A stretch of 64,000 nt of DNA from positions 1,741-65,740 of the forward strand of contig JAGLYP010000026.1 in NCBI GenBank assembly GCA_023132155.1, written 5' to 3'. This DNA comes from Candidatus Parcubacteria bacterium. Lineage in GTDB: Bacteria > Patescibacteriota > Patescibacteriia > Patescibacteriales > UBA12075. Below the pieces are notes generated by a model. The model had not been told where the DNA came from, did not search any database, and worked only from the letters and a program-made list of their open reading frames with translations. Position numbers and translations under genes: made by a program. Position 1 is the first letter of the stretch, and each line of letters starts with the position of its first letter. Positions 1,269-34,159 of this stretch are shown piece after piece.

Positions 1269-1274
1269 CTTAAG

Positions 1275-10700: not shown

Positions 10701-13700
10701 CAAGTGAAATCAGCATTATAACTAACGCGGTTGTTTCTACACCCGGAGCAATGTTTTATATAAAAAATGATCGCGTTTTATATTATCGCGTTTGGACGGG
10801 ATCCGCTTGGAACGCGGAGCAATCCGGACCGACTTTGGGAAGCGCGGCCGGTGATAATATCAGCCATATTCGGGCTGAGCGCTCGGACGATGGCGCCAGA
10901 ATTGCCATTTTAGCCAAAACATGGGACGGAACAAATCAAGAATGGTGGGGAACGGTTTATAGGGTTGCCGCTGATGATTTTGTAAATTCCGGCATTCTCG
11001 GATCAGCTTATGCAAGCGCTGATAACAACCAATTAATTACCGGATGCATCGGAGCGTTATCAAGTGGCGAGTTTGTTGTAATCAGAAACAATAACGGCAG
11101 TGCCGGCACTTTGGTTTTTTCATGGGATGCCGGCGACGGTTGGACAAGCGAGGGCGCGGGTCCGGGATCAACAGTCGGCGAAGTTGATATAATGAACGGT
11201 TGCCGGTTGGCGCGTCGGACAAGTACGGATAATTATTTATTGATTACTTTTGACGACACTATTCACGGAGGCGGTAATTACGGCGATGTGGGAACAAGTT
11301 ATTATTACGGCGGTTCCTCTTATAATAATAGCAGCTGGACAGTGTGGTTTGAACATTCCAGCTTGGAAGAGGATATTGATAATTATGTCGGAGAAGCGTT
11401 TTTTGATCCAAGTGATAATACGCGCGGGGCAATCAATTACTCAAACAGCAATAGTTCGTTTGACGCGAAAGTTAAAAAATTTATAGTAAGTCCGTCTTCT
11501 CCTTATATCAGTTATGGAGCGGAAGCCACTTCGCCCGCAACTTGGTCGGGGGATTTTGTTCACGGCGAATTCGGAACAGATCCGAACGGTGTCGGAACGG
11601 CTTGGTTTGCGGGTGATGATATTAACGGAGAATTAAATATTTATAAAATTGATATCACAAATAGCGCTCCTTCTTGGACGGCTAGCGCAAACGGAGATAA
11701 TATATCCGGAACAGGCCTTTATTCATATACGAGTGATTCGCAAAAGCCTTACGCCATCCAATTTTATAAAGACGGATACGGAACAGTCGCGTGGAATGAA
11801 GCAATAAGCGCCACTCCCAAGTATAGGATAATAACCGCCTCAACAAATACGATTGATGCCGCTGATACGGCGGTTTCAGGAGCAGAGGCTAATATTTATA
11901 CTCGCGCGCGTTTTTATAAAGATCCGAATGAAAATGAATTTGTGGCAATTTATCAAAATGATGATGTTGATTATAGCGCGATTTTTTGGGATGGAACAAA
12001 TGATAGTTTTTACAGTTCAGGCAATCAGGCATGGACTGAGCTTGTTACCGCTTCAGGCGCCGTTGACGCGGACTATGAGGCAGCTACATTTGCTTTTAGC
12101 GCCGGCAATGCTACTCCGAATACACCGACAAATTTAATTCAATATAAAAGCGATGCCAGCACAACCATTGCAAACGGAGCTTGGACAGATGAAAATACCG
12201 TTAAATTGGTTGCTTCATCCAAAGACGCGGATACCAGCGAAGTATTGTCTGTTTACGCGCAATTAATCGCGGATAATGAAACATTTTCATCTACCACAAC
12301 CCATCCGATTAATGCCTGCGCCGTTGGCGTGTCTTTTACCGCTTGCAACAGTAAAACTTGGCTGGTTGCTACCAGTTCCGGAGACTATAGCGCGAACGCC
12401 CTGGTTGCCACGGCAACTATTACTTTAATTTCTGATTCAGATGTCGGCTATAAATGGCAAGTTATGGCTTGCGATGATGATTCAGCTTGTTCCGGCTGGG
12501 CAAAATATAATTTAACTCAGCCGAATTTTTATGTTGATACAATTGACCCGACAGTTCCCGGAGAGCTTGAGCCTATTTCCAAAACCAGTACCAGCATAGA
12601 TTTAGATTTTGGAGCGACAACAACCGAAGATAATTTTTCTGAATATAAGATATTTTATTCAGAAACCATGCCGATTACAGAATTAAGTTCTGAACATGAT
12701 GATTCTGATCTGGATAATATTCTTTTTAACGGAACCAGCGGGGTGTCTGTTACTTCTCTGACACCCAATACTTTATATTATTTTAATATTTGGGCATATG
12801 ATTTTGCCGGAAATGTTGCCAGCTCAACCGTTGTGTCAACCACAACCAATACCACATATAATTTAGTCCAGACTTCTTATTTATTGGAAAATGATGACGC
12901 GCTAGATGTTAATTCCAATACTTCGGAAACAACTTTTGATAATCCTTTAAATAATATTAATATTGGAGAGCGGATGAATGTGAGGATTCAGCTTGAAAAC
13001 AACGGAGGTGATACCGCTTCTACTAAAGTTTATAGCCTGCAATATGAAAATCAGACTGACAACCCCGGCACATGGATTAATGTTGGCGTGGCTACTGAAA
13101 TTAGTTACTCTTTGGGTTTGTCCGGCGATAATGGACACGTGGTATCGTCAGCAAAAGCTGCCGCAAATTCAAATACTTTCGCGTTTGGCGCTTGGCATGA
13201 AGACACATATCAGACAGGATCTTTTTCTTTAATAAATAATTATTATACGGAATTTGTGTTTGCGATTGAAACCGGCAATGCCTTAACAAGCAAAACTTAT
13301 CGTTTGCGTTTGTATAATGAAACCGATAATAAAGTGCTTGATGGCTACAATAGTACTTCAACTTTTTCCACAGTTGCGACTGAAACTAAAAAATATTCCA
13401 AAGAAGAATTGGATTCTTTGCTCACAACAACCGCTGACTTGAAATATTATTTTGACGGCGAAGGATATGATGATGTTTCAACGGATGATAATACGAATTA
13501 TGATGAAAATGGAACAACAACCGCAAATTACGCTGTAATAAATTTTGCCACTAAGCATACCAATAATACAGATGCCATAACCGTAACTTGGAACGGACAA
13601 TCAAGCGCATCTCCCGTTTACGCAACCGTGTATTTGCAAGTTTATCAATATGGTTCAATTAATTCATGGATAACAATGGCAAGCAACAGCACAGCCGCAA

Positions 13701-15955
13701 CCGGAACTGATTTTACAATAAGCGCCAATTTAAATTCATCTTTGTCTGAATATTATGGAGCAAGCAATTGGACTTATTGGCGCGTTTATCAGGATGCGGG
13801 TAATCAAAATCTAAAAAGTGATTATTTTAATGCCGGTTTTGCCGCGCCTGTTTCGGAGAGCGCGCAAATTCATTATCGCTGGCGCAATGATGACGGTTCT
13901 GAAACCACGGGTGATTGGTTGGAAATTGAAGATACCGGCAGTCCAACCGCAAGTTCCAGTGTTGAGATCGGTGATAATATTCGTCTAAGAATAGAGATGG
14001 CGAACACGGGCGGAGGGGACGCGACAAATTATAATTATCGTTTGGAGTACGCGACCACTACGGGAAATTGTTCAACTGATCCGGGGAACTGGCTGACAGT
14101 GCCGACAGATTCAAGCGGGCATTGGCAAATGGCAACCAGCTCTTATTTTGCTGATAGCGATCCAAGTACCGCGCAGCTAAACAATACGGAATCGTATAGT
14201 TTTGTTGCCGGTGATATGGTTGAATATCCTTCAAATAGTTCGGGCAACATTTCTTTGTCTGAAGGATGGTATACAGAAATAGAATATGTAATTAAGGCCA
14301 CGATTAACGCGCAAAGCGCCGGCACTTATTGTCTTCGCGCCACAAACGCGGGTACGCCGATGGACGCTTATGATATTTTCCCGGTTATTACTCTTTCCGG
14401 AGTTACAAATACTTCACCGTTTTTTACTCTGACCGGCGAACCGATTGACAATAATTCCGCCTCTACTTCACCAACCGCTTATGGGCAAGCGATTGTATTT
14501 GACACGACCGCAAATGATGATGAAAGCGATGACTATTATTTGGCGATTTGCAAGACCGATAATATAACCGCTGGAAACGATGGACCGCCAATTTGCGGCG
14601 GCGGAGAATGGTGTATATCCGAACTTGCGTCAAGCACTGATTCGACAACTTGCAGTTATACGACCGCGACAAGCACGGAAAGTCTGGAATGGTATGGATT
14701 TGTTTGTGATAAATATCCCGGTTTTGCCGTGAGCAAATGTTCAGCGAGCTCGCAAGGAGATGATACGGCGGCAAATAATTCGCCGTTTGTAATTAATCAT
14801 CCGCCAATATTCACGAGTATTTCCACGACTGATGACAATAAAGATCCCGGAGGAATTTTTACGCTTACCGCTATCGCGTCTGACTCTGATGCGGTTGGCG
14901 GCGCAGATACTCTTCAGCTTTATGTTTGCTACACTGATGATGCTGGATTAGGAGGTTGTACCGGCGGCCCGACTGATACTGTTTGTTCAGGCGCGAGCAG
15001 TTCGCCCAATATTGAATGTGTATATACGGACACCGCTCCAAGCACATCAAGCGATATAACTTATTATGCTTTTGTGTTTGATGGGCATAATTTAGCTTCT
15101 GATGATAATTCAAATAGCAATACTTATACGATTAACAATGTCGCGTCGCAACTTGGCAATTTGGTTTTAAATAACGGCGTTGATATCGGTTTGAATATAA
15201 AACCGGCAACTACAACTGTTCAGATAGTAAGTACATCAGTAGAAGATCAAAATGGCTGCTCAACAATTCAGAGCGCTGTTGGAAGAGCATATATGTCAAA
15301 TGTTACCGGCGGCTATAATTGTACGGCTGATGATAATGATTGTTATCACGCGACAATTGGCGATTGCGTGAAAAATTGTACTAGCGATACAACGACCGAG
15401 ATTACTTGTTCGGTTGCTATGAAATATTTTGCCATCCCGACTGCTGATGATGCTGTTAACAATCCAAATGAATCGTACGATTGGCGTTCATATATGCAAG
15501 TTTATGACGGCGCCAATTATTCTTTCGCGACTTCTACCGGAGTTGAAGTTGGAACAGTTATAGCATTTGAAGTCTTAGAAGAGTTAATTGATTTTGGCAC
15601 AAGTATGTTTGCCGGAGAAAATACAGGAACTGTAAATTCTACCACAACAGTAGTTAATTGTGGAAATTCGCCGATTGATACGAGAATCAAAGGCACGGAT
15701 TTAAGCGGTTTTCCAAGCGGATCACTTGGTGTTACAAATATCAAATGGAATCTTGATAATTTTGTCTATGCGACAGAAACGCAAACCTTGACAACTTCAG
15801 AACAATTAGCGCATTTATTTGCTCCGCGCGCTACAAGCGCAATCGCCGTTGAAGATTTGGTTTTATGGGGAATAGGCATACCGCCTACCGCTGATGCCAG
15901 TACTTATACCGGTCAAAATATTTTTAAAGTGAAGTTGGATAGTGATAATTGGTAG
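1760..15955 (+). CDS. giant modular cell-surface protein (4731 aa) with N-terminal TM anchor/signal, acidic low-complexity region, six FN3-like modules and several recurring unknown module types
   Basis: Uninterrupted 14,196-nt ORF. The N-terminus has a hydrophobic segment (LFRLVFLILLLMAVFNF), followed by a D/E/S/N-rich region. Six segments follow the pattern 'APT(V/A/N)PG...(L/I)xFGA...(E/D)NF(S/K/T)EY(V/K/R)I(Y/F)Y...IW(A/V)YD..GN/H', read as fibronectin type III-like. The protein is T/S/N/D-rich overall, as expected for an extracellular protein. Confidence 0.85.
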   Translation: MQSPLLKKIRAISSNILFRLVFLILLLMAVFNFTPGRFIFVKAFNNEIKIFPGKYAVEENDAENFVWENVNNAFLQYLSPDSELSEFNQDNSAFIALRKTDKSQSNVKALPELGNSEESSGAEAMAGKDDASDNSETEDELFEVIVDENNKDETADNIEENKQEDSESQTLAPDFVSGPGDGDFEIKNMDSGQVGGNSQTIKQDSDQEKSENETENQDGDSENDRKGEDNLELSGVYEKIKSLFSYFDLFAIFNKNSANAEEKLLQQSVIFSDFSVPFEYKDREINSLNLYLSLAARSAQENDNLFFEYSLGETWEQISVLELNQEYSNSVNGGYFNFQLSEIIGWEEIEDLKIRISYNSNSPRLAMESNAEILDFFVFLDSLWIEIEYDDMDEEQEISESDYIPQYKENFNGEEAKDDDLSEYSVDLLNTKVNFKITENPELNFRYKKNKNLINKIISGLISPFSDEYNHIKISADLRDARGDKTELKPEVRYISEGEFLVKIPENIREFRPGKYFFEIEIEDKGEIYQISQNFNWGVLAINVNKAVYRPGERAYLQMGVLDDFGHTLCDADLFLEITAPSDKTDIFSTDDNTIFKNSECAGDTVISGSDYYSYYSVFDTGIYRIKLRAETENGIREIYDEFKVESVQSFELERIGPTRIFPLADYEMKIIMRANESFQGNLVEYVPGNFKITNYKLHLSSEYKQITNEDISVPDSLFLIQGDEIGKKLIWQNLDIKPGDILEFTYTFDAPDVSPEFYLLGPLKLVDEHYFNSGGKNGQLVFEEERQWQVASDAVAEYDANGGSSVGTWVTPSYAWNSVNNDYAIRDIPKKSASEEYTNYLIADSNTATDLGYTINSVEIGLEAYMEDLQADITVYVQPYFGGTASGTSYGFAQSVLGTSDEDVAHYYDVTNDANAPSPWTWSDIINLDIKLWGINNSNSRQRMFYIDQLSIMVNYTEPNDPPVGAFNSATQKRDGDGVVDISMDVGDPDNDDVKAILQYVQGSGCDFSSPQDPTLDETDGNTTASNGDPKVENDNFYQIGNSSGWIKTDTGTNTVQFDWDTITDLPSGNDTYCLRLYINDDNAASSTAATTTLTIDNVAPTVPGDLSVFATSGTSVILTFGAVSAETNFSEYVIYYKQYDGSSPIESDSSWASTSDSNLDNINYGSATSTEITDLFPATQYIFNIWVYDEYGHKASATNNVIATTSSQLVPPVTTINSVTQKTDGSGVVDISLEVDDGNDDDARVRVDYEIGTSCDFISPLDPVLDESAVNISADFGNPVIDNDIVYQVGTTTGGWIETNSGVNTVQFDWLSRGHDPDLDGDYCIQFTANDLDSGDQITPVNTTVTIDNTNPSVPGAMSVATSTATTITLNFGAESGDAHFKEYKIYYKYDYSGVTEADNAYNKSDDANLDEADFNGAATTTISNLLPETTYYFVIYAYDDYGNKVGSTEISGLTAEADSIRSRTVRFLAGTYSGSGGIGQNSDVNQTFSGFNFSLAENEVEIKNAYIIFDAQYESYANNSENYIGYNLTFDACQESCTADAFSGSGRVLKDDNTILSYDETESNQIRLLLDVTDETQLSAYTGGNVNMEAQIGYRLERGASADSISYANAVLVVTYTYNHSNSDSFTNTVFYPLESNASGDSGTRRSIQINGCTRDSNCPTFDYQVDIPEIGKQLNYWFEVNLLNYDNNQTKTDDVGVDVNIEGQDINSYTFYHENANAGGQGNMPSIYFGQFANFGFNENTAQILEVYANSVEYDYYLMGGEVAETYTASTSASTKTRTVSFPFGAVNNGNTTSQTNSAVQVYFPENGKSSGVVTIKKAWIRAHSGNYSLADVNLTISTKVGDNIQSGNFVYNYFPGQVNIAPPFKITHVIQSSDYGELALANSNTAKDVTIYTTNSSVNQGGLSAELMITYTYTDEANGYLASIDLFAGQTDENGNSQSATSATANLVFSEQVGIKTIRAAAMHSSMLLNDSDGAMPSGNFTIDVDISSTTPSCSNAYITGADGTNAYVEFYKDVKARLSAIDNLSYTVCYSNSGGGDDSAGGKMNSALVYTYQYDVQPAVLKQNDWRWYENIDAVQPTSAKADENTNISNINLADILRLRINIGATKEDLAISSKMFKLQYGQGGDCTAITGWNDVGGISDATLWRGYDNSSISDGDASGSVLLSTSNVFESYEEENSSIVNPTTIPQNNAGEWDWALYNYSATSSSDYCFRAVNGDGSLLNFYNSDSYAKLTTAATNTRPNTVFSLEQFKNIGTTTIANTAWINVDSVRLRASVTDVNINENLSLYFQLVQNIGSFTTATTEPSSACLNGTAYGACGSNIWVATSTIGDYRTDGFTATATIAVIPDLSSGYKWQVLACDDDGECSEWSQFNTGPNFRVDITAPTAPGNLILASTTASSFLIDFGASTTEDNFKEYRIFYKEGDSDVTELNNEHNDPDLGYKDYNSTADTLVESLSAGTQYVFNIWAYDFAGNSASATIEMIATTTSSFTPPTGSIFSLSQKTDGSGAIDIAIKADDGDNDNTLRAKVFYEAGSGCVFSPPLDMTIDATDENVSATYGDPDVDNTSEYQVGTTSGWILTSPGENFVFFDWLSKTEISGANGTYCIGLIVSDGIYVSSPTGTSQILIDNLAPSTPGALTLNDKNKSDITMNFGGQSSDSRFDRYRIFYSTSSLVTVDDYEHDDANLLLQDYGGAATTTISDLEEGEIYYINIWAYDDLGNRASSSQLTVTTNSKPKISSNLTQYKQDEATLITNGAWTDESEVRLLASSTDPDTSEVITLYFELLPSTGTFKTATSEPSGACVYGAAYGTCDSKIWFVASSSPGDFSVNPYMGTTSITAIPDSDTGYKWQVLACDDDGDCANEWAIFDAGTPNFKIDTVAPTNPGILSEYSKTSGSITLSFGATTTEENFTEYIVYYDISSPVNESGTVHGSTTDSNLVHINFNGVETTLVEDLLPNTQYHFVIYAYDEVGHKASSSEISIITNAVVSTPGAMFYIKNDRVLYYRVWTGSAWNAEQSGPTLGSAAGDNISHIRAERSDDGARIAILAKTWDGTNQEWWGTVYRVAADDFVNSGILGSAYASADNNQLITGCIGALSSGEFVVIRNNNGSAGTLVFSWDAGDGWTSEGAGPGSTVGEVDIMNGCRLARRTSTDNYLLITFDDTIHGGGNYGDVGTSYYYGGSSYNNSSWTVWFEHSSLEEDIDNYVGEAFFDPSDNTRGAINYSNSNSSFDAKVKKFIVSPSSPYISYGAEATSPATWSGDFVHGEFGTDPNGVGTAWFAGDDINGELNIYKIDITNSAPSWTASANGDNISGTGLYSYTSDSQKPYAIQFYKDGYGTVAWNEAISATPKYRIITASTNTIDAADTAVSGAEANIYTRARFYKDPNENEFVAIYQNDDVDYSAIFWDGTNDSFYSSGNQAWTELVTASGAVDADYEAATFAFSAGNATPNTPTNLIQYKSDASTTIANGAWTDENTVKLVASSKDADTSEVLSVYAQLIADNETFSSTTTHPINACAVGVSFTACNSKTWLVATSSGDYSANALVATATITLISDSDVGYKWQVMACDDDSACSGWAKYNLTQPNFYVDTIDPTVPGELEPISKTSTSIDLDFGATTTEDNFSEYKIFYSETMPITELSSEHDDSDLDNILFNGTSGVSVTSLTPNTLYYFNIWAYDFAGNVASSTVVSTTTNTTYNLVQTSYLLENDDALDVNSNTSETTFDNPLNNINIGERMNVRIQLENNGGDTASTKVYSLQYENQTDNPGTWINVGVATEISYSLGLSGDNGHVVSSAKAAANSNTFAFGAWHEDTYQTGSFSLINNYYTEFVFAIETGNALTSKTYRLRLYNETDNKVLDGYNSTSTFSTVATETKKYSKEELDSLLTTTADLKYYFDGEGYDDVSTDDNTNYDENGTTTANYAVINFATKHTNNTDAITVTWNGQSSASPVYATVYLQVYQYGSINSWITMASNSTAATGTDFTISANLNSSLSEYYGASNWTYWRVYQDAGNQNLKSDYFNAGFAAPVSESAQIHYRWRNDDGSETTGDWLEIEDTGSPTASSSVEIGDNIRLRIEMANTGGGDATNYNYRLEYATTTGNCSTDPGNWLTVPTDSSGHWQMATSSYFADSDPSTAQLNNTESYSFVAGDMVEYPSNSSGNISLSEGWYTEIEYVIKATINAQSAGTYCLRATNAGTPMDAYDIFPVITLSGVTNTSPFFTLTGEPIDNNSASTSPTAYGQAIVFDTTANDDESDDYYLAICKTDNITAGNDGPPICGGGEWCISELASSTDSTTCSYTTATSTESLEWYGFVCDKYPGFAVSKCSASSQGDDTAANNSPFVINHPPIFTSISTTDDNKDPGGIFTLTAIASDSDAVGGADTLQLYVCYTDDAGLGGCTGGPTDTVCSGASSSPNIECVYTDTAPSTSSDITYYAFVFDGHNLASDDNSNSNTYTINNVASQLGNLVLNNGVDIGLNIKPATTTVQIVSTSVEDQNGCSTIQSAVGRAYMSNVTGGYNCTADDNDCYHATIGDCVKNCTSDTTTEITCSVAMKYFAIPTADDAVNNPNESYDWRSYMQVYDGANYSFATSTGVEVGTVIAFEVLEELIDFGTSMFAGENTGTVNSTTTVVNCGNSPIDTRIKGTDLSGFPSGSLGVTNIKWNLDNFVYATETQTLTTSEQLAHLFAPRATSAIAVEDLVLWGIGIPPTADASTYTGQNIFKVKLDSDNW
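4640..6135 (+). repeat. intragenic tandem duplication in giant ORF: two [module A + FN3] units
   Basis: A1 at 4640-5055 ('FNSATQKRDGDGVVDISMDVGDPDNDDVKAILQY..GSGCDFSSPQDPTLDE') followed by FN3 at 5059-5385. A2 at 5390-5815 ('INSVTQKTDGSGVVDISLEVDDGNDDDARVRVDYEIGTSCDFISPLDPVLDE') followed by FN3 at 5818-6135. Confidence 0.8.
7970..8480 (+). repeat. giant ORF module C copy 1 ('DWRWYENID' type)
   Basis: 'LKQNDWRWYENIDAVQP...LRLRINIGATKEDL..KLQYGQGGDC..GWNDVG' resembles the copies at 12878 and 13871 ('IHYRWRNDDGSETT...IRLRIEMANTGGGDA..YRLEYATTTGNC..NWLTVP'). Confidence 0.6.
8495..10730 (+). repeat. giant ORF repeats: [module B + FN3][module A + FN3][module B + FN3]
   Basis: B1 at 8495-8925 and B2 at 9970-10410 share 'AW(I/T)..(D/E)(S/E)VRL.AS..D....E...LYF(Q/E)L......F.TAT.EPS.AC..G.AYG.C.S.IW.....GD......T..I..IPD...GYKWQVLACDDDG(E/D)C'. 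A3 at 9240-9665 is 'SLSQKTDGSGAIDIAIKADDGDNDNTLRAKVFYEAGSGCVFSPPLDMTIDA'. Each module is followed by an FN3-like module (8923-9240, 9664-9965, 10410-10730). Confidence 0.8.
12105..12850 (+). repeat. giant ORF third [module B + FN3] unit
   Basis: 'IQYKSDASTTIANGAWTDENTVKLVASSKDADTSEVLSVYAQL...GYKWQVMACDDDSACSGW' is followed by 'DPTVPGELEPISKTSTSIDLDFGATTTEDNFSEYKIFY...YYFNIWAYDFAGN'. Confidence 0.8.
12878..14395 (+). repeat. giant ORF module C copies 2 and 3
   Basis: Copy 2 begins 'YLLENDDALDVNSNTSE...MNVRIQLENNGGDTASTKVYSLQYENQTDNPGTWINVG' at 12878. Copy 3 begins 'IHYRWRNDDGSETTGDW' at 13871. A non-repeated segment lies between them. Confidence 0.6.
14405..15150 (+). repeat. giant ORF tandem Cys-containing module D x2
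   Basis: Both units open with 'SPF(F/V)' and contain D-rich and Cys-bracketed stretches. D1 carries 'YYLAICKTDN..PPICGGGEWC...YGFVCDKY'. D2 carries 'LQLYVCYTDD..GGCTGGPTDTVC...YYAFVFDGH'. Confidence 0.5.
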
Positions 15956-16006
15956 TATTTGGTTTTTTGTAAAATTAGTCTTTTATGTTATAATACAAAC
16001 AATAAC

Positions 16007-17758
16007 ATGCCAAAAACTTTATATATAAATATTGCAATATTTTTCGGGATAATTATCTCGGTGTTTTGTATTGGCATGCTGGCAATTACAAATTTAGGTC
16101 CATTAACTGTTGCCGCTGAAGAAGATGATGTTTTGCCGCCGCAGATTTCTAATATAAAAATCGGCAATGTTAGCGCTACATCTACGGTTATTACATGGGA
16201 AACTGATGAGCTGGCGGATTCATTAGTTAATTTTGGCTTAAATAAAAATTATGGGATTGTACGCGAGCCGCGTTTTGACAAGCTTGAACATGAAGTTATT
16301 TTAGATGAGCTTTTATCTGATTCAACTTATTATTTCCGCGTTACTTCCGCGGACGAAAAAGGCAATCAAGGAATATCCAGTGATCATTTTTTTGTTACTC
16401 CGACAGATAAACAATCTTCATTAACCGGCGGGAAAGACAAAGTTAACGCCATTGAAGAGATGATTGAAGAAGTTTTGGATTTGGTTAATCAAATTTCCAC
16501 CGGCGAGGAAATGGATAAAGTTGATGGCCGTCTGGATGATAAAGGCGGCGGCGATGAAAGATATTTTGAAGGTGCTTTGGGCGAGATTTTAGATATGTTG
16601 AAATTAATTGCCAGCGAGGAAAATATTGATTTGGAAGAAATTGAACGCGGAAAAGAGGTTGGCCGGCTTGAGGGCGGTGAAGGCAATATGGAATATGTTT
16701 CTTTAAAAGAAGTGCTTGAACTTTTAGATTCTATTTATCAGGAAGAAAGCTTGGAAATTATTGAACAAGAAGTTAAAGAAAAAGCGGAAGAAATTTTGGA
16801 GCCGCCGACTATTATTTTGGATTATGCCGATGTTGAAATTGGCATTGATTACGCGATAATTTCTTGGGCAACAGACAAAGAGTCAAATTCAATTGTCGCA
16901 CTAGCCGTTGAAGAAGATTATGACAGTGAAGCAGAGAATCCTTATGTATGGAAAGAGGGCGAACCGGACGAATTAGTGCTGGAACATTTAGTCTATATTA
17001 ATGGCTTAATTCCCGCCACAACTTATCATTTTCAAGTGCAGTCAAAATCAGCACTTGATTTAACCGGAAAAAGTATGGATAAAATTTTTAGGACTAAATC
17101 TATTGCTCCGGAAATATATAATTTGCAAATTGTTAAAATTGAAGAAGAAGCCGCGACAATTCGCTGGACTACCAATGTGCTTTGTTCTTCAATTGTGGAA
17201 TACACAAATCTTAATAATGCCGAAGCAAAACTTGAGGGAAATTCAAGTTTTATAACAGCGCATTCAATGCGTTTAACAAATTTGGTTTTTGATACTTATT
17301 ATTCGGCCGTAGTTAAGGTTGAAAGCGAAGACGGCGAAAAAGGGGAAAGTGAAATAATGACATTTATTACCACTCGCGATAAGTATCCGCCTGAAATTTC
17401 CCAAGTTAATACCGAGTCAACCATATATCCCGGATCGGACAACAAGATTCAAACGATTGTCAGCTGGCGCACTGATGAAGAAGCAATGTGCCAATTATTT
17501 TATCATCAAGGCTTGATATCAATGGACGAGCCGTCTTCATTGCCAAAAGAAGAAGATTACGCGTTTAAGCATGTTGAGGTGGTAACTAATTTTTTACCGG
17601 CCAGCGTTTATAAGTTTTGGATTGCTTGTGAAGATGAAGCTGATAACAATTCAAAGTCAGAAGATTTTACTATGTTGACACCGACCCAAGAAGAAAGTAT
17701 TATTGATATAATTATTAAGAATTTTGAAAGTTCATTCGGTTGGCTTAAGAGAAAATAG
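16007..17758 (+). CDS. membrane-anchored protein with four FN3-like domains
   Basis: The preferred start is ATG 16007 (MPKTLYINIAIFFGIIISVFCIGMLAI is a TM segment); the TTG at 15959 in the ORF track lies in a TATAAT-containing stretch. Four repeats follow the pattern 'PP.I......V....A.I.W.T.......V.Y..........H...L..L...T.Y.F.V', for example 'PPQISNIKIGNVSATSTVITWETDE...STYYFRVTSADEKGN'. An E/G-rich linker follows the first repeat. Confidence 0.75.
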   Translation: MPKTLYINIAIFFGIIISVFCIGMLAITNLGPLTVAAEEDDVLPPQISNIKIGNVSATSTVITWETDELADSLVNFGLNKNYGIVREPRFDKLEHEVILDELLSDSTYYFRVTSADEKGNQGISSDHFFVTPTDKQSSLTGGKDKVNAIEEMIEEVLDLVNQISTGEEMDKVDGRLDDKGGGDERYFEGALGEILDMLKLIASEENIDLEEIERGKEVGRLEGGEGNMEYVSLKEVLELLDSIYQEESLEIIEQEVKEKAEEILEPPTIILDYADVEIGIDYAIISWATDKESNSIVALAVEEDYDSEAENPYVWKEGEPDELVLEHLVYINGLIPATTYHFQVQSKSALDLTGKSMDKIFRTKSIAPEIYNLQIVKIEEEAATIRWTTNVLCSSIVEYTNLNNAEAKLEGNSSFITAHSMRLTNLVFDTYYSAVVKVESEDGEKGESEIMTFITTRDKYPPEISQVNTESTIYPGSDNKIQTIVSWRTDEEAMCQLFYHQGLISMDEPSSLPKEEDYAFKHVEVVTNFLPASVYKFWIACEDEADNNSKSEDFTMLTPTQEESIIDIIIKNFESSFGWLKRK

Positions 17759-21071: not shown

Positions 21072-21779
21072 ATGGAAGAAACTTTTAATATTCAAGCTAT
21101 TATATTAAATCGGCATATTTTTCGCGAAAACGATAGCAGGGTTTTGGTTTACAGTAAAGAACACGGGAAAATGTTTTTGGTTGCGAGAGGCGCAAGATCT
21201 ATAAAATCAAAAATGGCCGGACACATTGAACCTTTTTGTTTGTCTGATTTAATGGTGGTTCGCGGGAAAAATTATAATTATATCGGCGGAGCAAAGTCAG
21301 GCAATTGTTTTCGCGAACTTAAAAGCGATTTAAAAAAATTGGAAGTTGCCGGCCGTTCTTTCGCGATTTTAAATAAAATAATTAAAGAGCATGAAGTTGA
21401 TCCAAAATTATTTTTTTTAATAAATGATTTCTTAGAAGCACTATCAGATATTAATAAAAATATTGATTCAAATTTATTTTTGCATGCTTTTATTTTGAAA
21501 TTAATTTGCCAATTAGGCTATCGCCCGGAGCTTTATTCGTGCGTAATTTGCCGAAAAGATATTAATCCAAACAACAATTATTTTGATTTTAAAAGGGGCG
21601 GTTTGGTTTGTTCTAGTTGCCGAAAAAACAGCTTGACAATTCATAAAGATTCCATTAAGCTGTTAAGGTTTATAGTTAAAGAAAATTTTAAAAATATTTC
21701 AAAATTGCACTTTAATAAAAAAATCTCTTTAGGGGCAATAAAAAATATTGTTTTGTTTTATAATTATAATTTTAAATGA
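21072..21779 (+). CDS. recO: DNA repair protein RecO
   Basis: N-terminal OB-fold-like 'AIILNRHIFRENDSRVLVYSKEHGKMFLVARGARS' and a C-terminal Cys4 pattern 'CVICRKD...CSSCRK'; 235 aa. Confidence 0.8.
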   Translation: MEETFNIQAIILNRHIFRENDSRVLVYSKEHGKMFLVARGARSIKSKMAGHIEPFCLSDLMVVRGKNYNYIGGAKSGNCFRELKSDLKKLEVAGRSFAILNKIIKEHEVDPKLFFLINDFLEALSDINKNIDSNLFLHAFILKLICQLGYRPELYSCVICRKDINPNNNYFDFKRGGLVCSSCRKNSLTIHKDSIKLLRFIVKENFKNISKLHFNKKISLGAIKNIVLFYNYNFK

Positions 21780-21791
21780 GGAGGTGAGAAA

Positions 21792-22034
21792 ATGGAAAAG
21801 GAAAGGTGCCCGTTTTGCGGAACAATACAGATTATTGATGGTGTTTGTCCTAATTGCGGGACGAATGTGTCAAAAAAGATTAAAAAAATTGAAACTCCAC
21901 ATAAACCCGCATTGGAACCGGATAGCTTGGGCGGAAACCAAGACAACAAGAGAATTGATTATGATAGTGGAAAAAACGAAATATTTTCCGGAAATATGAT
22001 GCATAAAAGGATTATAAATGAAACTTCACAATGA
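21792..22034 (+). CDS. small zinc-ribbon protein
   Basis: 80 aa with 'CPFCGTIQIIDGVCPNCG'. A strong SD (GGAGGTGAGAAAATG) precedes it and a terminator follows. Confidence 0.55.
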   Translation: MEKERCPFCGTIQIIDGVCPNCGTNVSKKIKKIETPHKPALEPDSLGGNQDNKRIDYDSGKNEIFSGNMMHKRIINETSQ

Positions 22035-22046
22035 AAAATCAATGAA

Positions 22047-22076
22047 ATGGCGACTTTATTTACGGTCGCCATTTTT
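22047..22076 (+). terminator. rho-independent terminator
   Basis: ATGGCGAC-[10 nt]-GTCGCCAT followed by TTTTT. Confidence 0.75.
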
Positions 22077-22078
22077 CC

Positions 22079-22107
22079 TTGACTTAATTTTAATAATTAT
22101 CTATAAT
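22079..22107 (+). promoter_or_regulatory. sigma70-type promoter of the T-box leader
   Basis: TTGACT (22079-22084), a 17-nt spacer, then TATAAT (22102-22107). The predicted +1 is near 22114. Confidence 0.7.
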
Positions 22108-22113
22108 TGTGTA

Positions 22114-22384
22114 TGTAAAGCCGTATTTTTATTTAATTAAAAATGAATTTTGGCAAACACCAAAAAGAGGCGCGGGAAGAAAGCTTCGTCAAAGTGAGTA
22201 GAACCTGCCGGGTAAGCCCGTTATAGCTTATGAATTAAGGGTTATATTATTGTTTGGCATATTGGTGATTAAATAATCACTAATTAACTAATCATCAATT
22301 AACTAAATATGGGTGGCACCACGGGTTAAAGAACTCGTCCCTGATTATCACGAATTTTGTGGTACTTAAGGACGAGTTTTTTTG
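22114..22384 (+). ncRNA. T-box riboswitch leader with intrinsic terminator (putative aspS leader)
   Basis: 'AUAUGGGUGGCACCACGGG' at 22307-22325 matches the T-box consensus GGGUGGNACCGCG. It is followed by terminator AACTCGTCC...GGACGAGTT plus a T-run (22332-22384). A stem III-like hairpin GTGATT-AAAT-AATCAC lies just upstream. A promoter precedes it and an aaRS gene lies downstream. The specifier codon is not resolved. Confidence 0.65.
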
Positions 22385-22414
22385 TATAAAATTTATTTTT
22401 GTTATTTTGGCGAA

Positions 22415-22750
22415 TGCTTTTTTCCTTTTTGTCATTCCTGCAGAAGTTAAGTAATTCGTTGACAAATAAAAGTAAACCCTCCTTACCTTGTCATCCTGGG
22501 GCTTGACTGGAGCGACAGCGGAAGTCAAGAACCCGGGATCCAGAAGAAAGAGGTACGTACTATATTCACTTGATATTGTTTATTTGTTTCTCCCACTCCT
22601 GGATCCCGGATATTTTTATTTCTACCCCAAGAGCACTTCCGTTGGGCGCGCTGTCGCTCCAATAAAAATTCCAGGATGACAAAAGTATGGAGGTTTGTTA
22701 ATTTCTGTCAACGAATTGTTAACATCTATAAGAATGACAGGAAAAATTTA
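22415..22750. mobile_element. MITE-like nested palindromic element (~310-330 nt) between the T-box leader and aspS
   Basis: Nested complementary pairs: tgtcattc(22430)/gaatgaca(22732); aattcgttgaca(22453)/tgtcaacgaatt(22706); ttgtcatcctgg(22488)/ccaggatgacaa(22671); ggagcgacagcg(22509)/cgctgtcgctcc(22649); ccgggatccag(22533)/ctggatcccgg(22599). No credible ORF is present. Confidence 0.6.
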
Positions 22751-22780
22751 AATTTATTAATAAATATCAACATATTGCAT

Positions 22781-22808
22781 GTTATGCGATGCGTGTTATG
22801 TGATATGT
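22781..22808 (+). repeat. 7/14-nt periodic GTTATGY-GATRYGT array just upstream of the aspS start
   Basis: gttatgcgatgcgt and gttatgtgatatgt lie in tandem. About 25/29 positions are identical to the array at 54331-54358 upstream of mreB. Confidence 0.7.
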
Positions 22809-22819
22809 GAAATAAATAT

Positions 22820-24601
22820 ATGTTAAGAACAAACACTTGTGGCGAGCTCACCAAAAAAGAAATCAACAAACAAGTTACGCTTTGCGGCTGGGTGCATCGG
22901 CGCCGGGACCATGGTGGAATAATTTTTATTGACCTGCGAGATCGCTACGGTTTGACGCAAATTAAATTTGATCCGGAAATTAATAAAGAAACTCACGCGC
23001 GAGCCGATAAACTGCGCAATGAATGGGTGATTCGCGTTGCCGGCAAGGTAATTGCCAGACCCGAAACAATGGTAAATAAAAAATTAAAAACAGGAGAAAT
23101 TGAGGTGGAGATGGAAAAACTGGAAATATTAAACGAATCAAAAACTCCGCCGTTTGAGTTAAGCGAAGAAAAAGCCAAAGAGGCTAATGAAGAAATAAGA
23201 ATGGAGTATCGTTATATTGATTTACGGCGGAAAAAAATGCAGAAAAATTTAAAATTAAGAAGCGAAGTTACTAAATTGATTCGCGATTATTTTTACAGGG
23301 AAGATTTTTTAGATGTTGAAACTCCTTGCATGGTCAAAGATACTCCTGAGGGCAGCCGTGAATATTTGGTTCCGGCGCGAACGTTTCCCGGACAATTTTA
23401 TGTTCTTCCACAAAGCCCGCAGCAATTAAAGCAATTTTTAATGATTGGCGGAATTGATAAATATTTTCAAATCGCCCGCTGTTTTCGTGATGAAGATTTG
23501 CGCGGCGATAGGCAGCCGGAATTTACTCAGTTTGAAATTGAAATGAGTTTTGCCGAGCAAGAGGATATTATCAATGTTATGGAAGGATGTTTTTTGGAAG
23601 TTTCAAAGCAAATTGTGCCTGATAAAAAAATATTAAATAAACCCTTTTTGCAAATGATATGGCAGGACGCAATGGAGCGTTATGGTTCTGATAGTCCGGA
23701 TATTAGATATGATTTAGGAATTAAGCCGGTTACGGAGCTGGTCAAAGATTGCGGTTTTAAAGTTTTTGCCGATATGGCAAAAAAAGACGGCCATGTAGTT
23801 CATGCTTTAAAAATTGACAAAGGCGCTAAATTTACCAGAAAAGAAATTGATGATTTAACCAGAATCGCTCAAGATAACGGCGCTAAAGGCTTGGCTTATA
23901 TAATTATTAAGGAAGACGGTAAATTGCAATCGCCGATTGTGAAATTTTTAGGAGAAGATTTATCTAAAAATATTTTAAATACGGTTGCCGCGAAGCAGGG
24001 AGACATAGTATTTTTCGGGGCAGATGAATTTGCTGCTGCTTGTGAAAGTTTGGGCGCGGTAAGAAAAGAATGCGCTAAAATGTTAGATTTAATCCCTAAG
24101 GATATTTTGGCGTATTTGTGGGTAATTGATTTTCCATTATTTGAGAAAAGCAAAGAAACCGGCGGATTGGGCGCCGCGCATCATCCTTTTACCCGCCCGC
24201 TTAAAGAGGATATGAAATTATTAGATGAGGATCCGCTTAAGGTCAGATCGCATGCCTATGATTTGGTTTTAAACGGCGTTGAAATCGGCGGCGGTTCTTT
24301 AAGAATACATGAAAAAAAATTGCAGGAAAAAATATTTACAGTATTGGGGATATCAGAAAATGATGCCAAGCGACGCTTTGGCCATATGATTAAAGCTTTT
24401 GAATATGGAGTTCCGCCTCACGGCGGAATCGCAATGGGTCTGGATAGATTTGTGATGTTATTAGCTGACGAACCAAATATTCGTGAAGTTATGGCTTTTC
24501 CTAAAGAGGGCAAAGGGCGCGATTTAATGCTTAATGCTCCTGCCCCGATTGATGAAAAACAATTAAAGGAGCTTGGACTTAGGATTAGAAAAGTTGATTA
24601 A
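22820..24601 (+). CDS. aspS: aspartyl-tRNA synthetase
   Basis: 'RTNTCGELTKKEINKQVTLCGWVHRRRDHGGIIFIDLRDRYG', class II motif 2 'FRDEDLRGDRQPEFTQFEIEMSF' and motif 3 'GGIAMGLDRFVMLL'; 593 aa. Confidence 0.95.
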   Translation: MLRTNTCGELTKKEINKQVTLCGWVHRRRDHGGIIFIDLRDRYGLTQIKFDPEINKETHARADKLRNEWVIRVAGKVIARPETMVNKKLKTGEIEVEMEKLEILNESKTPPFELSEEKAKEANEEIRMEYRYIDLRRKKMQKNLKLRSEVTKLIRDYFYREDFLDVETPCMVKDTPEGSREYLVPARTFPGQFYVLPQSPQQLKQFLMIGGIDKYFQIARCFRDEDLRGDRQPEFTQFEIEMSFAEQEDIINVMEGCFLEVSKQIVPDKKILNKPFLQMIWQDAMERYGSDSPDIRYDLGIKPVTELVKDCGFKVFADMAKKDGHVVHALKIDKGAKFTRKEIDDLTRIAQDNGAKGLAYIIIKEDGKLQSPIVKFLGEDLSKNILNTVAAKQGDIVFFGADEFAAACESLGAVRKECAKMLDLIPKDILAYLWVIDFPLFEKSKETGGLGAAHHPFTRPLKEDMKLLDEDPLKVRSHAYDLVLNGVEIGGGSLRIHEKKLQEKIFTVLGISENDAKRRFGHMIKAFEYGVPPHGGIAMGLDRFVMLLADEPNIREVMAFPKEGKGRDLMLNAPAPIDEKQLKELGLRIRKVD

Positions 24602-29460: not shown

Positions 29461-29470
29461 GGTTCTTTAT

Positions 29471-29601
29471 TGTCATTGCGAGCGCTTTTAATTTGTCATT
29501 GCGAGCTCGCGAAGCAATCCCGTACCACAGAACATCGTGCGTGGATTTGTAACGGATAGCGCAAATACCGCGGGATTGCTTCGCTAGCGCTCGCAATGAC
29601 A
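29471..29601. repeat. TGTCATTGCGAGC-type long hairpin element abutting the uvrC start
   Basis: tgtcattgcgagcTCgcgaagcaatcccg (29494-29522) is complementary to cgggattgcttcgcTAGCgctcgcaatgaca (29571-29601), with a 48-nt loop. An extra partial direct copy tgtcattgcgagcgc lies at 29471-29485. Confidence 0.75.
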
Positions 29602-29608: not shown

Positions 29609-30937
29609 ATGGATATAAAAAAAATAAAAGTCTCGCAAAGCCCCGGTGTTTATTATTTTTTAAATAAACAAGGAAAAATAATTTATATCGGGAAAGCGGC
29701 GAATTTGAAAAGCCGCGTGTTTTCGTATTGGCGCAAAAGCGCCGGTTTGAGCGGCGCCAAACAGGAAATGATGAGGCAAATCGCGGATATTAAGTGTGTT
29801 GAAACCGATTCGGAAATAGAAGCTTTGCTTTTAGAGTCAAATTTAATAAAAAAGCATCAGCCGAAATATAATATTGATTTAAGAGATGATAAACGCTTTG
29901 TTTATATCAAAATTTCAACAGAAGATGAAATCCCCGGGGTTTTTATTACCAGAAAAATCGAAAAGCAAGGAAAGTATTTTGGTCCTTTTATATCTGTGTT
30001 TGCCGTAAAAGATGCGTTAAAAGCAATTAGAAAAATATGGCCGTATTGTACAGAGCGAAAAATTAAAAATAAGCCTTGTTTTTACGCGCAAATCGGGCGT
30101 TGTGTCGGGGTTTGCGGCGGTAATTTTGATTTAAACGAATACAAAGAAAAAATTATTAAGCCGATTGTGATGTTTTTGGGTGGGAAGAAAAATGTGATAA
30201 TTAAGAATTATGAATTAAGAATTAATAATTTAGAGAAGAAATTAATAAATAATAAAAATGATGAGAAAATTTTGGAAGAGATTACGCGATTAAAGCGGAA
30301 ATTATTGAATTTAAAGTATATATTGGCGTGCGCGAATGTTATTGGAATTTCTGAAAAGTACGCGGCTGATGTGTTTGAGTTGGCTAAAGTTTTGGGTTTG
30401 CCTAAAGTGCCTGAGCGGATAGAAGGGTATGATATATCCAATATTTTCGGGCGTGAAGCGGTTGGGTCAATGGTGGTTTTTTCCAATGGCGAACCTGATA
30501 AAAGAGGTTATCGCAAGTTTAAAATAAAAGTTGGCAGTGAAATGGGGGATACGGGGATGTTGAAGGAGGTATTGGAAAGGAGATTGAAGTATGCAGTAAA
30601 TAATGGCTTGCGCTCCGAAGCTTCAGCGAAGGAGTGGCCTAGTCCCGATTTAATTATTATTGACGGCGGAAAGGGACAGCTTAATTTGGCGGTGAGATTA
30701 TTAAAAAAAGAAAAATTGGGTATTCCTGTGATAGCCGTGTCAAAAGGCAAGGGGTTAAGGGGCGCGAACGCGCTTGATAAGATATTTTTTCCGGGAGAAA
30801 AAAAGCCGCTTGAATTACCATTGGCTTCACCTGCTTTGCATATTATAAAACGTGTTCGCGATGAAGCGCATCGTTTCGCGATTAAATATCATCGGGAGTT
30901 GAGGAGGAAAAGTTTTGTGAAAAGTGCAAGAAACTAA
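29609..30937 (+). CDS. uvrC: excinuclease ABC subunit C, short form lacking the C-terminal (HhH)2 domain
   Basis: GIY-YIG 'GVYYFLNKQGKIIYIGKAANLKSRVFSYW' and 'IKKHQPKYN'. The endonuclease region carries 'IEGYDISN', 'PDLIIIDGGKGQL' and 'RVRDEAHRFAIKYHR'. The protein ends 13 aa later at 442 aa, versus ~600 typical. Confidence 0.85.
   Translation: MDIKKIKVSQSPGVYYFLNKQGKIIYIGKAANLKSRVFSYWRKSAGLSGAKQEMMRQIADIKCVETDSEIEALLLESNLIKKHQPKYNIDLRDDKRFVYIKISTEDEIPGVFITRKIEKQGKYFGPFISVFAVKDALKAIRKIWPYCTERKIKNKPCFYAQIGRCVGVCGGNFDLNEYKEKIIKPIVMFLGGKKNVIIKNYELRINNLEKKLINNKNDEKILEEITRLKRKLLNLKYILACANVIGISEKYAADVFELAKVLGLPKVPERIEGYDISNIFGREAVGSMVVFSNGEPDKRGYRKFKIKVGSEMGDTGMLKEVLERRLKYAVNNGLRSEASAKEWPSPDLIIIDGGKGQLNLAVRLLKKEKLGIPVIAVSKGKGLRGANALDKIFFPGEKKPLELPLASPALHIIKRVRDEAHRFAIKYHRELRRKSFVKSARN
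30197..30231 (+). repeat. in-frame NNAATTA heptamer array inside uvrC
   Basis: ATAATTA AGAATTA TGAATTA AGAATTA ATAATTT encodes 'IIKNYELRINNL'. Confidence 0.8.
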
Positions 30938-31024
30938 GTACATACGATTTTTTTGTTATCCGTAGGAACAGGGCAGTACCCTGTTCCTACGGATAACAAA
31001 AAAATCGTAGGTACTTAGTTTCTT
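30928..31024. terminator. 97-nt palindrome (30-bp perfect core stem); bidirectional terminator between convergent uvrC and uvrB
   Basis: acgatttttttgttatccgtaggaacaggg (30944-30973) is the exact reverse complement of 30979-31008. The outer arms aagaaactaagtac (30928-30941) and gtacttagtttctt (31011-31024) include the last two codons and the stop of both genes. Confidence 0.85.
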
Positions 31025-32820
31025 TTAATTGTCCGCGGCGTGATGCCGTGTTTTTTATTATAAGCAATTTGCATTTTTCTGCGCCTTTTAGTTTCGTTTA
31101 CAGCATAAGTAATTGCTGGAGTGATTTTATCGCCGTACATAATAACTCTGCCTTCAACGTGGCGGGAGGTGCGTCCCATTGTTTGCATAAGCGAGGTTTC
31201 ATTTCTTAAAAAGCCGGACATGTCAGCGTCAAGAATCGCGACCAACGATACTTCCGGCAAATCCAGACCTTCGCGCAGAAGATTGATTCCCACCAGCACA
31301 TCGTATTTGCCAAGTCTTAAGTCCCTGAGAATATCAACACGCTCCAAGGTTTTTATTTCCGAGTGCAGATATTGGACTTTGATTTTTTCTTCTGCCAAGT
31401 ATTCTGCCAGTTCTTCAGCCATTCTTTTAGTTAAAGTTGTTACCAATACCCGCTGTTTTTTAATAACTGTTTTTTTTATCTCTTTTAGCAAATCCGGAAT
31501 CTGCCCGGTGCTTGGACGAACCATAACTTCCGGATCCAAAAGGCCTGTCGGTCGGATAATTTGTTCAACGACTTGTTTTGATTTGCGTATTTCATAGTCT
31601 TTTGGCGTGGCGGAAACATAAATTACTTGATTGATTTTAGAATTAAATTCTTTAAAATTTAATGGGCGATTGTCTTTGGCGCTTGGGAGCCGGAAGCCGA
31701 AATCAATTAAAGTTTGTTTGCGGGATTGGTCGCCCGCGTACATGCCGCGAATTTGCGGAATACTAACGTGCGACTCATCAATAAATAATAAAAAATCTTT
31801 TGGAAAAAAATTCATAAGAGTGGATGGCGGTTTTCCCGGATTGCGGTTGCTTAAATGCCGCGAGTAATTTTCTATGCCATTACAATAGCCGATTTGTTCA
31901 ATCATTTCCAAGTCAAAATTTGTTTTTCGCTCCAAACGGTACGCTTCTACTTGTTTATTTTGTTTGCTTAATTCATTTAAACGTTTTTTAAGCTCCAGCC
32001 GGATATTTGTTAAAGCTTTTTCCATTCGGTCTTTAGGAGTCATAAAATGTTTAGCAGGCAGAATATTTATACTGTCCAGTTTTATCGCCTGCTTGTTTCT
32101 TAAGTCTTTTGCCCAAACCGGTTCAGTAGCGCCGGGTTTAACATTGAAAATATAAATATTTTCAATTTTATCGCCATACATTTCAATTCTTACAACCGAT
32201 TCGCCGGTAGATAAATGAATATCAATCATGCCGCCATTAACCCTGAATTGTCCTCTGTAAAACGCGGTATCGTTTCTTTCATATTGAATGCCGACCATCT
32301 GCCGCAAGAGTTCGTTTCTTTTTATTTTTTGCTTAACGCTGAAAATCCGCCCTAAATTTTCATAATCTTTTTTTTCTCCCAAACCGTAAATGCAGGAAAC
32401 GCTAGCCACTATAATTACATCCTTACGATTAATTAATGATTGCGTTGAGGCATGCCGCAGGCGGTCTATTTCTTCGTTAATTGTCGCTTCTTTTTCAATA
32501 TAAGTATCAGTTTGCGGAATATAGGCTTCCGGCTGGTAATAATCGTAATAAGACACAAAATAATGCACTGCCGCTTGAGGAAAAAATTGCTTAAATTCTC
32601 CGTATAGCTGCGCCGCCAAGGTTTTATTATGGGACATAATTAATGTCGGTTTTTGCGTTTTTTCTATGATATTAGCCATAGTAAAAGTTTTGCCGCTTCC
32701 GGTAACGCCAAGCAATGTTTGGTTTTTTTTGCCGGCCTTTAAGCCGGCTGTTAATTTTTTAATCGCAATCGGCTGATCACCGGCCGGCTTGTATTTTGAA
32801 TGAAGTTTAAATAAGCTCAT
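31015..32820 (-). CDS. uvrB: excinuclease ABC subunit B, short form lacking the C-terminal UVR domain
   Basis: '[15 protein letters not shown]', Walker A '[10 protein letters not shown]', and helicase motifs 'DESH' and 'QTMGRTSRH'. It ends at '...[15 protein letters not shown]' (601 aa), just after helicase domain 3. Confidence 0.9.
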
Positions 32821-34066: not shown

Positions 34067-34099
34067 TCAACGAATTAGTAAACATCTATAATAATGACA
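34067..34099 (+). repeat. solo copy of the right-end motif of the 22415-22750 element
   Basis: TCAACGAATTAGTAAACATCTATAATAATGACA compared with TCAACGAATTGTTAACATCTATAAGAATGACA at 22708-22739. Confidence 0.7.
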
Positions 34100-34103: not shown

Positions 34104-34132
34104 AAAAAACAGGATTCTGATTCTGTTTTTTT
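34104..34132 (+). terminator. hairpin plus T-run terminator
   Basis: AAAAAACAG-[10 nt]-CTGTTTTTT. Confidence 0.5.
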
Positions 34133-34159
34133 GACCCCCTTAATATTCTATGATATAAT
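34131..34159 (+). promoter_or_regulatory. strong sigma70-type promoter of the abiE operon
   Basis: TTGACC, a 17-nt spacer, then TATAAT with an extended TGA (TGATATAAT). Confidence 0.65.

Follow-up and report, generated by a model that had tools for sequence, protein, structure and literature searches.

We analysed a 64,000-nt stretch of a Candidatus Parcubacteria assembly (GCA_023132155.1, contig JAGLYP010000026.1, positions 1,741 to 65,740 of the forward strand; hereafter the window), which has a G+C content of 36.8% and is part of a 769-kb metagenome scaffold. A 310-nt nested palindrome (22430-22739) lies here between the terminator of a T-box-like leader and the start codon of aspS, the gene for aspartate--tRNA ligase. 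This palindrome is quite probably a non-autonomous, non-coding composite mobile element, a miniature inverted-repeat transposable element (MITE) in the broad sense, in which the ends of an IS481-type insertion sequence (IS) enclose an inverted pair of hairpin repeats resembling the NTS of Neisseria. The parts of the element, and a solo copy of its end elsewhere in the window, are as follows.

22430..22464, + strand: left end, a 9-nt head TGTCATTCC followed by a 26-nt IS481-family inverted repeat TGCAGAAGTTAAGTAATTCGTTGACA; 31/35 positions agree with the consensus (nhmmer E 6.4e-11).
22465..22487, + strand: left spacer of the inverted-repeat module; a similar spacer consensus occurs in many metagenome copies.
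22488..22682 (195 nt), no strand assigned: core, two inverted NTS-like hairpin units around a 55-nt AT-rich centre, with 12-nt perfect terminal repeats TTGTCATCCTGG / CCAGGATGACAA.
22489-22543 (+ strand) and 22599-22681 (- strand): the NTS-like units of the core, from a head-and-tail scan.
22683..22705, - strand: right spacer, the mirror image of the left spacer.
22706..22739, - strand: right end, a 25-nt IS481-family inverted repeat and the head AGAATGACA; 31/35 positions agree with the consensus (nhmmer E 2.5e-8).
34067..34099, - strand: solo inverted-repeat copy (head and inverted repeat, truncated inward, containing TATAAT); 91% identity to the right arm (nhmmer E 1.9e-7).

The nested inverted repeats were confirmed and greatly exceed chance. 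Gapless repeat finding placed the arm pairs at 22430-22450/22719-22739, 22453-22499/22671-22717, 22503-22520/22649-22666 and 22533-22546/22596-22609. A preliminary description of this DNA had proposed that such arms fold the whole of 22430-22739 into one long imperfect hairpin, and this is what was predicted: 22415-22750 as RNA gave a single hairpin of -134.3 kcal/mol, whereas dinucleotide shuffles of the same interval averaged -75.5 ± 5.4 kcal/mol (z = -11.0; 0 of 100 as stable). The flanks TTTTTTCC and GGAAAAA are base-paired within this fold and extend the pairing, as had also been stated. The only long open reading frame (ORF) of the element (63 aa) is uncalled in every assembly and differs in frame between the two copies; the element is non-coding, without a conserved ORF. 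Since gene callers might have annotated other copies of the element, its concatenated six-frame translation was searched against a set of 5.8 billion proteins, which returned nothing at E <= 0.01. The element had no blastn match in plasmid and phage collections.

The outer arms led to the putative partner of the element. A degenerate pattern drawn from both arms and the solo copy, TGTCATTNNTNNAGANGTTN{3,4}AATTCGTTGA, matched 38 metagenome contigs from many samples and had no match in viral contigs. Alignment of the copies yields TGTCATTCC TGTAGATGTTnnnTAATTCGTTGACA as consensus; the sequence on the left of it varies. At eight of the 38 loci, an ORF of 325 amino acids begins 25-60 nt after the motif. 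Its product contains the Pfam domains rve, rve_3 and rve_2 above their cut-offs, as in a DDE transposase, and its best NCBIfam model is transpos_IS481 (191.7 bits, E 2e-56), with 74.8 bits for IS3. Locus L045 holds the full IS (286-1377; 1092 bp, or 1074 bp without the heads), in which the motif is inverted at both ends and the ORF ends inside the right repeat.

A profile HMM (nhmmer) was then built from 31 distinct metagenome copies alone. It gave exactly three significant matches in the window, at 22430-22465 (+; E 6.4e-11), 22739-22704 (-; E 2.5e-8) and 34099-34067 (-; E 1.9e-7), and none in the aspS loci of relatives. Because a profile made without the window recovers exactly these three sites, we regard both arms and the solo 33-mer as copies of this IS end. 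The left end (22430-22464) is 85-94% identical to the ends of IS and MITE copies in loci L016-L058. Between the inverted repeat and the next TGTCAT head, many metagenome copies have a spacer of 13-30 nt, usually about 23 nt, and in L017 an alignment of 84 nt (80%) runs from the inverted repeat through the spacer into the next head. The solo copy, which the preliminary description had already recognised as a recurrence of the right end with TATAAT in place of TATAAG, is 33 nt long and stops exactly at ATGACA.

The boundaries of the partner IS were defined with its protein. With a limit of E <= 1e-40, the transposase family comprises 2916 proteins. Most of them are encoded on contigs of 1.0-1.9 kb, in keeping with a repeat at which assemblies break. 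One identical transposase (P0184) was found with two left flanks and three right flanks; the DNA shared by its copies starts precisely at TGTAGATG and ends at CATCTACA, and the minimal inverted repeat is therefore 26 nt, starting with TGT. Direct repeats of 5 bp border the IS in L056/L041 (ATTCC...ATTCC), in L055 and L058 (GGAAT...GGAAT) and in L042 (ATTGC...ATTGC), and near-repeats were seen at the junctions in L023 and L062. At most junctions recovered by way of the protein, a route unbiased by the arm DNA pattern, the IS adjoins a GC-rich hairpin repeat of the type TGTCATTCCCGCGAAGGCGGGAATC, in essence the NTS of Neisseria, or its tail. Since the junctions adjoin NTS-like units and carry 5-bp repeats, the IS appears to target the ATTCC/GGAAT pentamer in NTS-like heads or tails, leaving a 5-bp duplication. 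Its size of 1092 bp, TGT-starting inverted repeats and short duplication are traits of the IS481 family, whose members are about 1-1.3 kb long with duplications of 4-15 bp.

Loci L054-L059 (Ga0194053/54, ERZ273000xx-ERZ273001xx, GCA_964640695.1) carry one identical IS, in samples from related sites, in mixed combinations of the two left and three right flanks. This mixing reflects either polymorphism by IS-mediated inversion or recombination, or assembler chimeras across the 1.1-kb repeat.

The core has a distribution of its own. An inner-arm pattern scan of one genome per species found, in contig JAGLIO010000009.1 of the closest relative (GCA_023142915.1), a 131-nt stretch 91% identical to 22487-22617 of the window. 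This copy starts at the same CTTGTCATCCTGG, 10 nt past the stop codon of a pilB/gspE-like gene, which has no orthologue in the window, and is cut off by the end of the contig. It is without the outer 58 nt of the element, and for this reason the window element appears to be a composite whose separately repeated core is nested in the outer arms. Patterns derived from the core had no match in viral contigs or JGI metagenomes.

In Neisseria, the NTS CGTCATTCCCGCGMAVGCGGGAATCYRG encompasses dRS3 (ATTCCC-N8-GGGAAT), a known integration target, and is linked to the Ssn family of GIY-YIG single-strand nucleases; 'Ssn-related motifs' (SRM) are widespread, and the arrangement NTS-gene-NTS was noted to resemble a mobile element (PMC11893778). 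Either half of the core runs from (T)GTCATCC through a stem with an enlarged loop to GGGATCCAG, that is, the NTS head and tail minus one base per side. Under a relaxed definition (TGTCAT head, complementary ...ATC tail), the window contains five units against 0.46 expected, with a maximum of three in 200 shuffles. Two of them lie in the core (22489-22681) and the others in 29472-29601. The preliminary description had seen a likeness between the arms and a hairpin at 29494-29601, and it holds in that both are inverted pairs of units with the TGTCAT head and the ...ATC tail.

The second repeat, at 29470-29601 just upstream of uvrC, is an inverted NTS-like pair TGTCATTGCGAGC...GAAGCAATCCCG around a centre of about 48 nt, with an extra solo head TTGTCATTGCGAGCGC at 29470-29485. 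In L042, an IS481-type element has inserted in a repeat of this type, with ATTGC duplicated.

Other composites share the architecture of the window element. Pairs of IS ends in inverted orientation, 250-410 nt apart, were found in L019, L046, L036, L033, L052, L029 and L030. All seven, like the window element, have the same layout: head, inverted repeat and spacer; an NTS-like unit; an AT-rich centre; an inverted NTS-like unit; and spacer, inverted repeat and head. Six of the seven metagenome composites had fold z values of -6 to -14, and L052 only -3.9. Judged by this layout, the window element is a member of a five-part superfamily with a core of its own. The composite of L033 recurs in L029, L034, L022, L030, L025 and L018; the alignments of L029, L034 and L022 start at the TGTCAT head and those of L029 and L030 end at ATGACA, while the flanks differ. 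Since these copies share boundaries in different flanks, such composites appear to multiply as units.

We compared the aspS loci of relatives, fetched by means of their AspS proteins (seven loci: L005-8, L009, L011, L012/13, L063, L064/65 and L066). The closest AspS, with 91% identity, belongs to a metagenome-assembled genome labelled 'Candidatus Parcubacteria bacterium'; the other close relatives carry the label Patescibacteria. None of the seven loci has the element upstream of aspS, and from this comparison it appears to be lineage-specific DNA. The closest relative (L005-L008) has neither T-box nor element, and its terminator is followed by TTGCCA-17-TATAAT and a short leader. Relatives with 72-74% identity (L011, L012/13, L063, L064/65 and L066) have short intergenic regions and no T-box. 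Only L009 has an orthologous T-box (RF00230, 56.9 bits), with about 195 nt of unrelated sequence between terminator and ATG. At 9330-9460, upstream of its T-box promoter, L009 has another long palindrome, AAATAACTAAAAATAGC...GCTATTTTTAGTTATTT; intergenic palindromes seem common in this clade.

That the element had inserted into the leader, as proposed earlier, is borne out in part. On the right, homology to the closest relative resumes at AATTTAAATTTA, 5 nt past the end of the element (p ~0.004 against shuffles). The relative's promoter, when aligned to the right arm of the element, scores the same as when aligned to the left flank. With the arms matching IS481-family inverted repeats, the core repeated elsewhere and the element absent from the related aspS loci, the earlier term 'MITE-like' is apt.

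Several points weigh against the interpretation as a mobile composite. Homology of the left flank to the closest relative is not significant (p ~0.2), and this relative offers no clean empty site because it is without the whole T-box leader. Target-site duplications are lacking at both the 35-nt and the 26-nt boundaries, where the flanks are CCTTTT (left) and GGAAAA (right). Every other MITE-size copy likewise has inverted heads TGTCATTCC...GGAATGACA with no duplication outside them, and 5-bp duplications were seen around some full IS copies only. The 64-kb window holds one full copy and one solo inverted repeat, and no transposase gene was found in it or in the aspS loci of relatives. Two look-ups for the transposase in the source samples did not find it and led to other projects, and its 191.7 bits fall below the curated NCBIfam cut-off of 224 for IS481. 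For the core, the published SRM pattern HGTCWYN(0-2)YYVSBRHN(0-5)WNVSBRGN(0-2)RNCYNB had 0 matches in the window (0.1 expected), failing because the loops of the core units are enlarged. The window also contains no small GIY-YIG gene of the Ssn type, its only GIY-YIG motif being that of UvrC. Finally, we infer co-transcription of the hairpin with aspS from promoter scans only.

At the inverted-repeat tips of the window element, TGT... has mutated to TGC... (left) and TAT... (right, as in the solo copy), and since there is also no transposase in the window, the copy is probably an immobile relic. For the missing duplication, three options are open: the head is now part of a 35-nt repeat; IS copies have recombined, all four junction combinations existing in L054-L059; or each head of an NTS pair received its module in a separate insertion.

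The last option can be extended to the origin of the whole element. In such a stepwise course, the NTS-like pair at 22488-22682 came first, each of its TGTCAT heads was then struck separately by an IS481-type module, and the palindrome arose by symmetric accretion. This supposes that the module always lands in the same orientation relative to the head. A core without outer modules exists in L014, one-sided modules beside a single NTS-like unit are common (L025, L024, L053 and L032), and tandem modules occur in L030 and L029. The IS strictly targets the ATTCC pentamer in NTS-like heads, and the right arm is closer to the solo copy than to the left arm. However, complete composites with the same outer boundaries are found in differing flanks, which points to movement as a unit, and the pentamers flanking each module in the window (ATTCC and ATCCT) give no clean duplication. 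We hold a stepwise origin as a tentative possibility.

The genes and signals that surround the element bear on what it may do to aspS.

22079..22107, + strand: sigma-70-like promoter of the T-box leader, TTGACT-17-TATAAT, 11/12 matches.
22143..22387, + strand: T-box-like leader; RF00230 match at 22143-22345, terminator hairpin at 22328-22382 and U-run.
22820..24601, + strand: aspS (aspartate--tRNA ligase, 593 aa), from its ORF, Pfam domains and homologues.

The RF00230 match at 22143-22345 scored 36.1 bits, short of the gathering threshold of 93 bits; its E value was 4e-6 in the local search and 2e-4 when the entire window was searched. The terminator hairpin and its U7 run end at 22387, 433 nt upstream of the ATG, close to the ~435 nt given in the preliminary description, and the element takes up 310 nt of this gap. 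The T-box promoter is the sole strong match on the + strand in 21700-23000. Because it is the only strong promoter in the 800 nt upstream of the gene, aspS would most likely be expressed from T-box read-through transcripts that carry the near-perfect hairpin of about 310 nt in their 5' leader. The base of the hairpin is AU-rich, and no clean U-run follows it. The hairpin would then be tolerated, and may serve as an RNase III substrate, without being a dedicated regulatory RNA; by likeness to Correia elements and IS481, RNase III processing or an outward promoter is possible.

Within the T-box-like leader, a small hairpin at 22150-22167 (UUUUGG-CAAACA-CCAAAA) has AAC (Asn) followed by A in its loop. 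In the orthologous leader of L009 (~9566-9583), the loop is CAGACA, in which GAC (Asp) precedes A. Should the loop be the specifier, as in T-boxes with a reduced Stem I, aspS in the window would respond to tRNA-Asn, which would fit a non-discriminating AspRS; both leaders stay well below the Rfam threshold (36 and 57 against 93 bits).

We also considered that the right end was co-opted as a working promoter, so that aspS is largely independent of the T-box. This would be compatible with the element being a MITE. The promoter could be internal (CTGTCA-16-TATAAG) or a hybrid (TTAACA-17-AAAAAT, 22719-22747) of TTAACA from the inverted repeat and AAAAAT from the flank, each with 9/12 matches. TATAAG is located at 22727-22732, as had been noticed before, although 88 nt and not 80 nt upstream of the ATG at 22820. 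The family consensus at this place is TACAGG, against TATAAG in the right arm and TATAAT in the solo copy; the difference is mildly suggestive of a promoter, but may be AT drift. In the closest relative, the -10 of the aspS promoter stands at nearly the same distance from the shared AATTTAAATTTA block, and outward promoters are documented for IS481 and Correia elements (PMC6161684, PMC3053399, PMC2649163). Against co-option, both candidates are weak, TATAAG is without the conserved final T, and promoter-like matches in this region are no more frequent than in shuffles (5 against 5.5 expected). Nor need the solo copy serve as a promoter, since a near-consensus TTGACC-17-TATAAT at 34131-34159 is nearer the gene downstream of it, and an intact T-box with a strong promoter has been kept upstream of aspS. 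A working promoter in the right end thus seems rather unlikely.

A wider scenario would join these possibilities. An IS481-type transposase would target NTS-like heads in ultra-small bacteria, palindromes would accrete symmetrically into five-part composites that move as units, and the copy at aspS would have been recruited, either as a hairpin for processing or as a promoter module, to modify or circumvent the T-box control of an essential AspRS that is probably non-discriminating. Taken as a whole, we consider this chain improbable.

The preliminary description had offered a structured RNA as the alternative to a MITE. A dedicated RNA for aspS control could be a cis-regulatory leader domain, a precursor of a small or antisense RNA, or an RNase III processing module, and the very stable predicted fold, the location inside a regulated leader and the two copies of the central stem, which differ at positions still permitting G-U pairing, agree with it. 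Yet a palindromic DNA repeat predicts such a fold without selection on RNA. At gathering and permissive (E <= 10) thresholds, Rfam gave only the weak T-box and chance microRNA-like hairpin matches. The element is missing even from the only other T-box-bearing leader among the seven related loci, so it is not conserved at the orthologous position; arms and core each occur in unrelated genomic contexts, and mobile-element ends explain the sequence. This alternative is largely refuted and very improbable. We give next to no credence to an assembly artefact or local inverted duplication not present in the organism: assembly errors can create palindromes and two Logan contigs break inside the element at 22655, but the 769-kb scaffold and the 2.8-kb contig L004, which were assembled independently, carry the complete element without a difference, two Logan assemblies agree exactly with its right part, and parts of it match sequences of unrelated samples.

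The Logan contigs L002 and L003, from independent assemblies, both begin at base 22655 of the window, inside the right arm of the core. This shared start implies that, in those samples, the next 31-mer also occurs in a second context. Together with the contig of the relative that ends inside its own copy, it suggests that further copies exist.

The window contains other repeats. A palindrome of about 66 nt (36263-36328) lies inside the ileS frame (35590-38583) and encodes ...LADLELSSEASELSSVNSN...; by analogy, it may be an in-frame insertion like the palindromic elements of Rickettsia. At 30919-31033, a near-perfect palindrome with 55-nt arms (91% complementary, 5-nt loop) covers the convergent 3' ends of uvrC (30937) and uvrB (31015), and may be a bidirectional terminator or another repeat. 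AT-rich intergenic repeats of the AATTAAGAATTAAGAAT type occur in both orientations at 17764, 30194, 41074, 42716, 44328 and 49378. Positions 1-17000 encode very large fibronectin-type-III repeat proteins (one of 4731 aa) with diverged internal DNA repeats.

Small genomes of the candidate phyla radiation are usually thought to be poor in mobile DNA. If the element is a mobile composite, a structure that looks like a riboregulator is selfish repeat DNA, and similar giant palindromes in this genome and its relatives are not to be read as RNA genes. Two repeat systems would also be linked, namely the NTS/dRS3-like hairpins tied to Ssn nucleases and an IS481-type transposon that inserts into their heads. 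The aspS locus would be a natural test of whether an attenuation riboswitch tolerates having its terminator and gene separated by a 310-nt hairpin. Such repeats break metagenome assemblies, and recognising them aids genome finishing.

Compared with known systems, the element combines known kinds (an IS481-type MITE and NTS-like repeats) in the ordinary manner of a genomic parasite, and, according to the literature searched, this family has not previously been described in ultra-small bacteria; a search on MITEs in Patescibacteria found no description of such elements. The leader upstream of the element resembles T-box leaders (RF00230) in its T-box sequence, antiterminator/terminator alternatives and U-run, but scores far below threshold and has a much reduced Stem I; the element itself lies downstream of the terminator and is no part of the riboswitch. 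REP/BIME/REPIN sequences are likewise palindromic units outside genes; they group into larger mosaic or doublet hairpins, and a domesticated nuclease or transposase is believed to spread them. The window element, however, has no GTAG-type REP head or RAYT gene, and its identifiable partner is a DDE transposase.

Correia elements (CREE) of Neisseria are small inverted-repeat elements in 5' leaders that are co-transcribed, form hairpins that RNase III can bind or cut and can create promoters at their ends (PMC2649163). Their sequence is probably unrelated, and the likeness, an inverted-repeat hairpin in a 5' leader, is a functional analogy only. CREE measure 100-155 bp and have a characteristic 26-bp inverted repeat and a TA duplication. 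The core units share with the NTS/dRS3 of Neisseria the (C/T)GTCAT(T)CC head, the hairpin and the GG(A)ATCCAG tail, and in the metagenome loci the partner IS inserts into canonical NTS-like units TGTCATTCCCGCGAAGGCGGGAATC. Unlike NTS, the core units have loops enlarged to 30-60 nt, form inverted pairs whose heads face outward, with about 50 nt between the two units, and are not accompanied by an Ssn gene in the window.

IS481-family ISs and the MITEs derived from ISs are also close. The arms correspond to the inverted repeats of an IS of 1.09 kb that encodes one DDE (rve) transposase, with IS481 as its best family match; the IS has ends beginning with TGT and duplicates 5 bp on insertion, and the window element is short, non-coding and bounded by inverted repeats. 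The differences are that the partner transposase scores below the curated IS481 cut-off, that the MITE-size copies have an extra 9-nt head on both sides and no duplication outside it, and that the hosts appear to be ultra-small bacteria of the candidate phyla radiation. The interior also differs from that of an IS-derived MITE, since it is a pair of unrelated hairpin repeats in place of a deleted IS.

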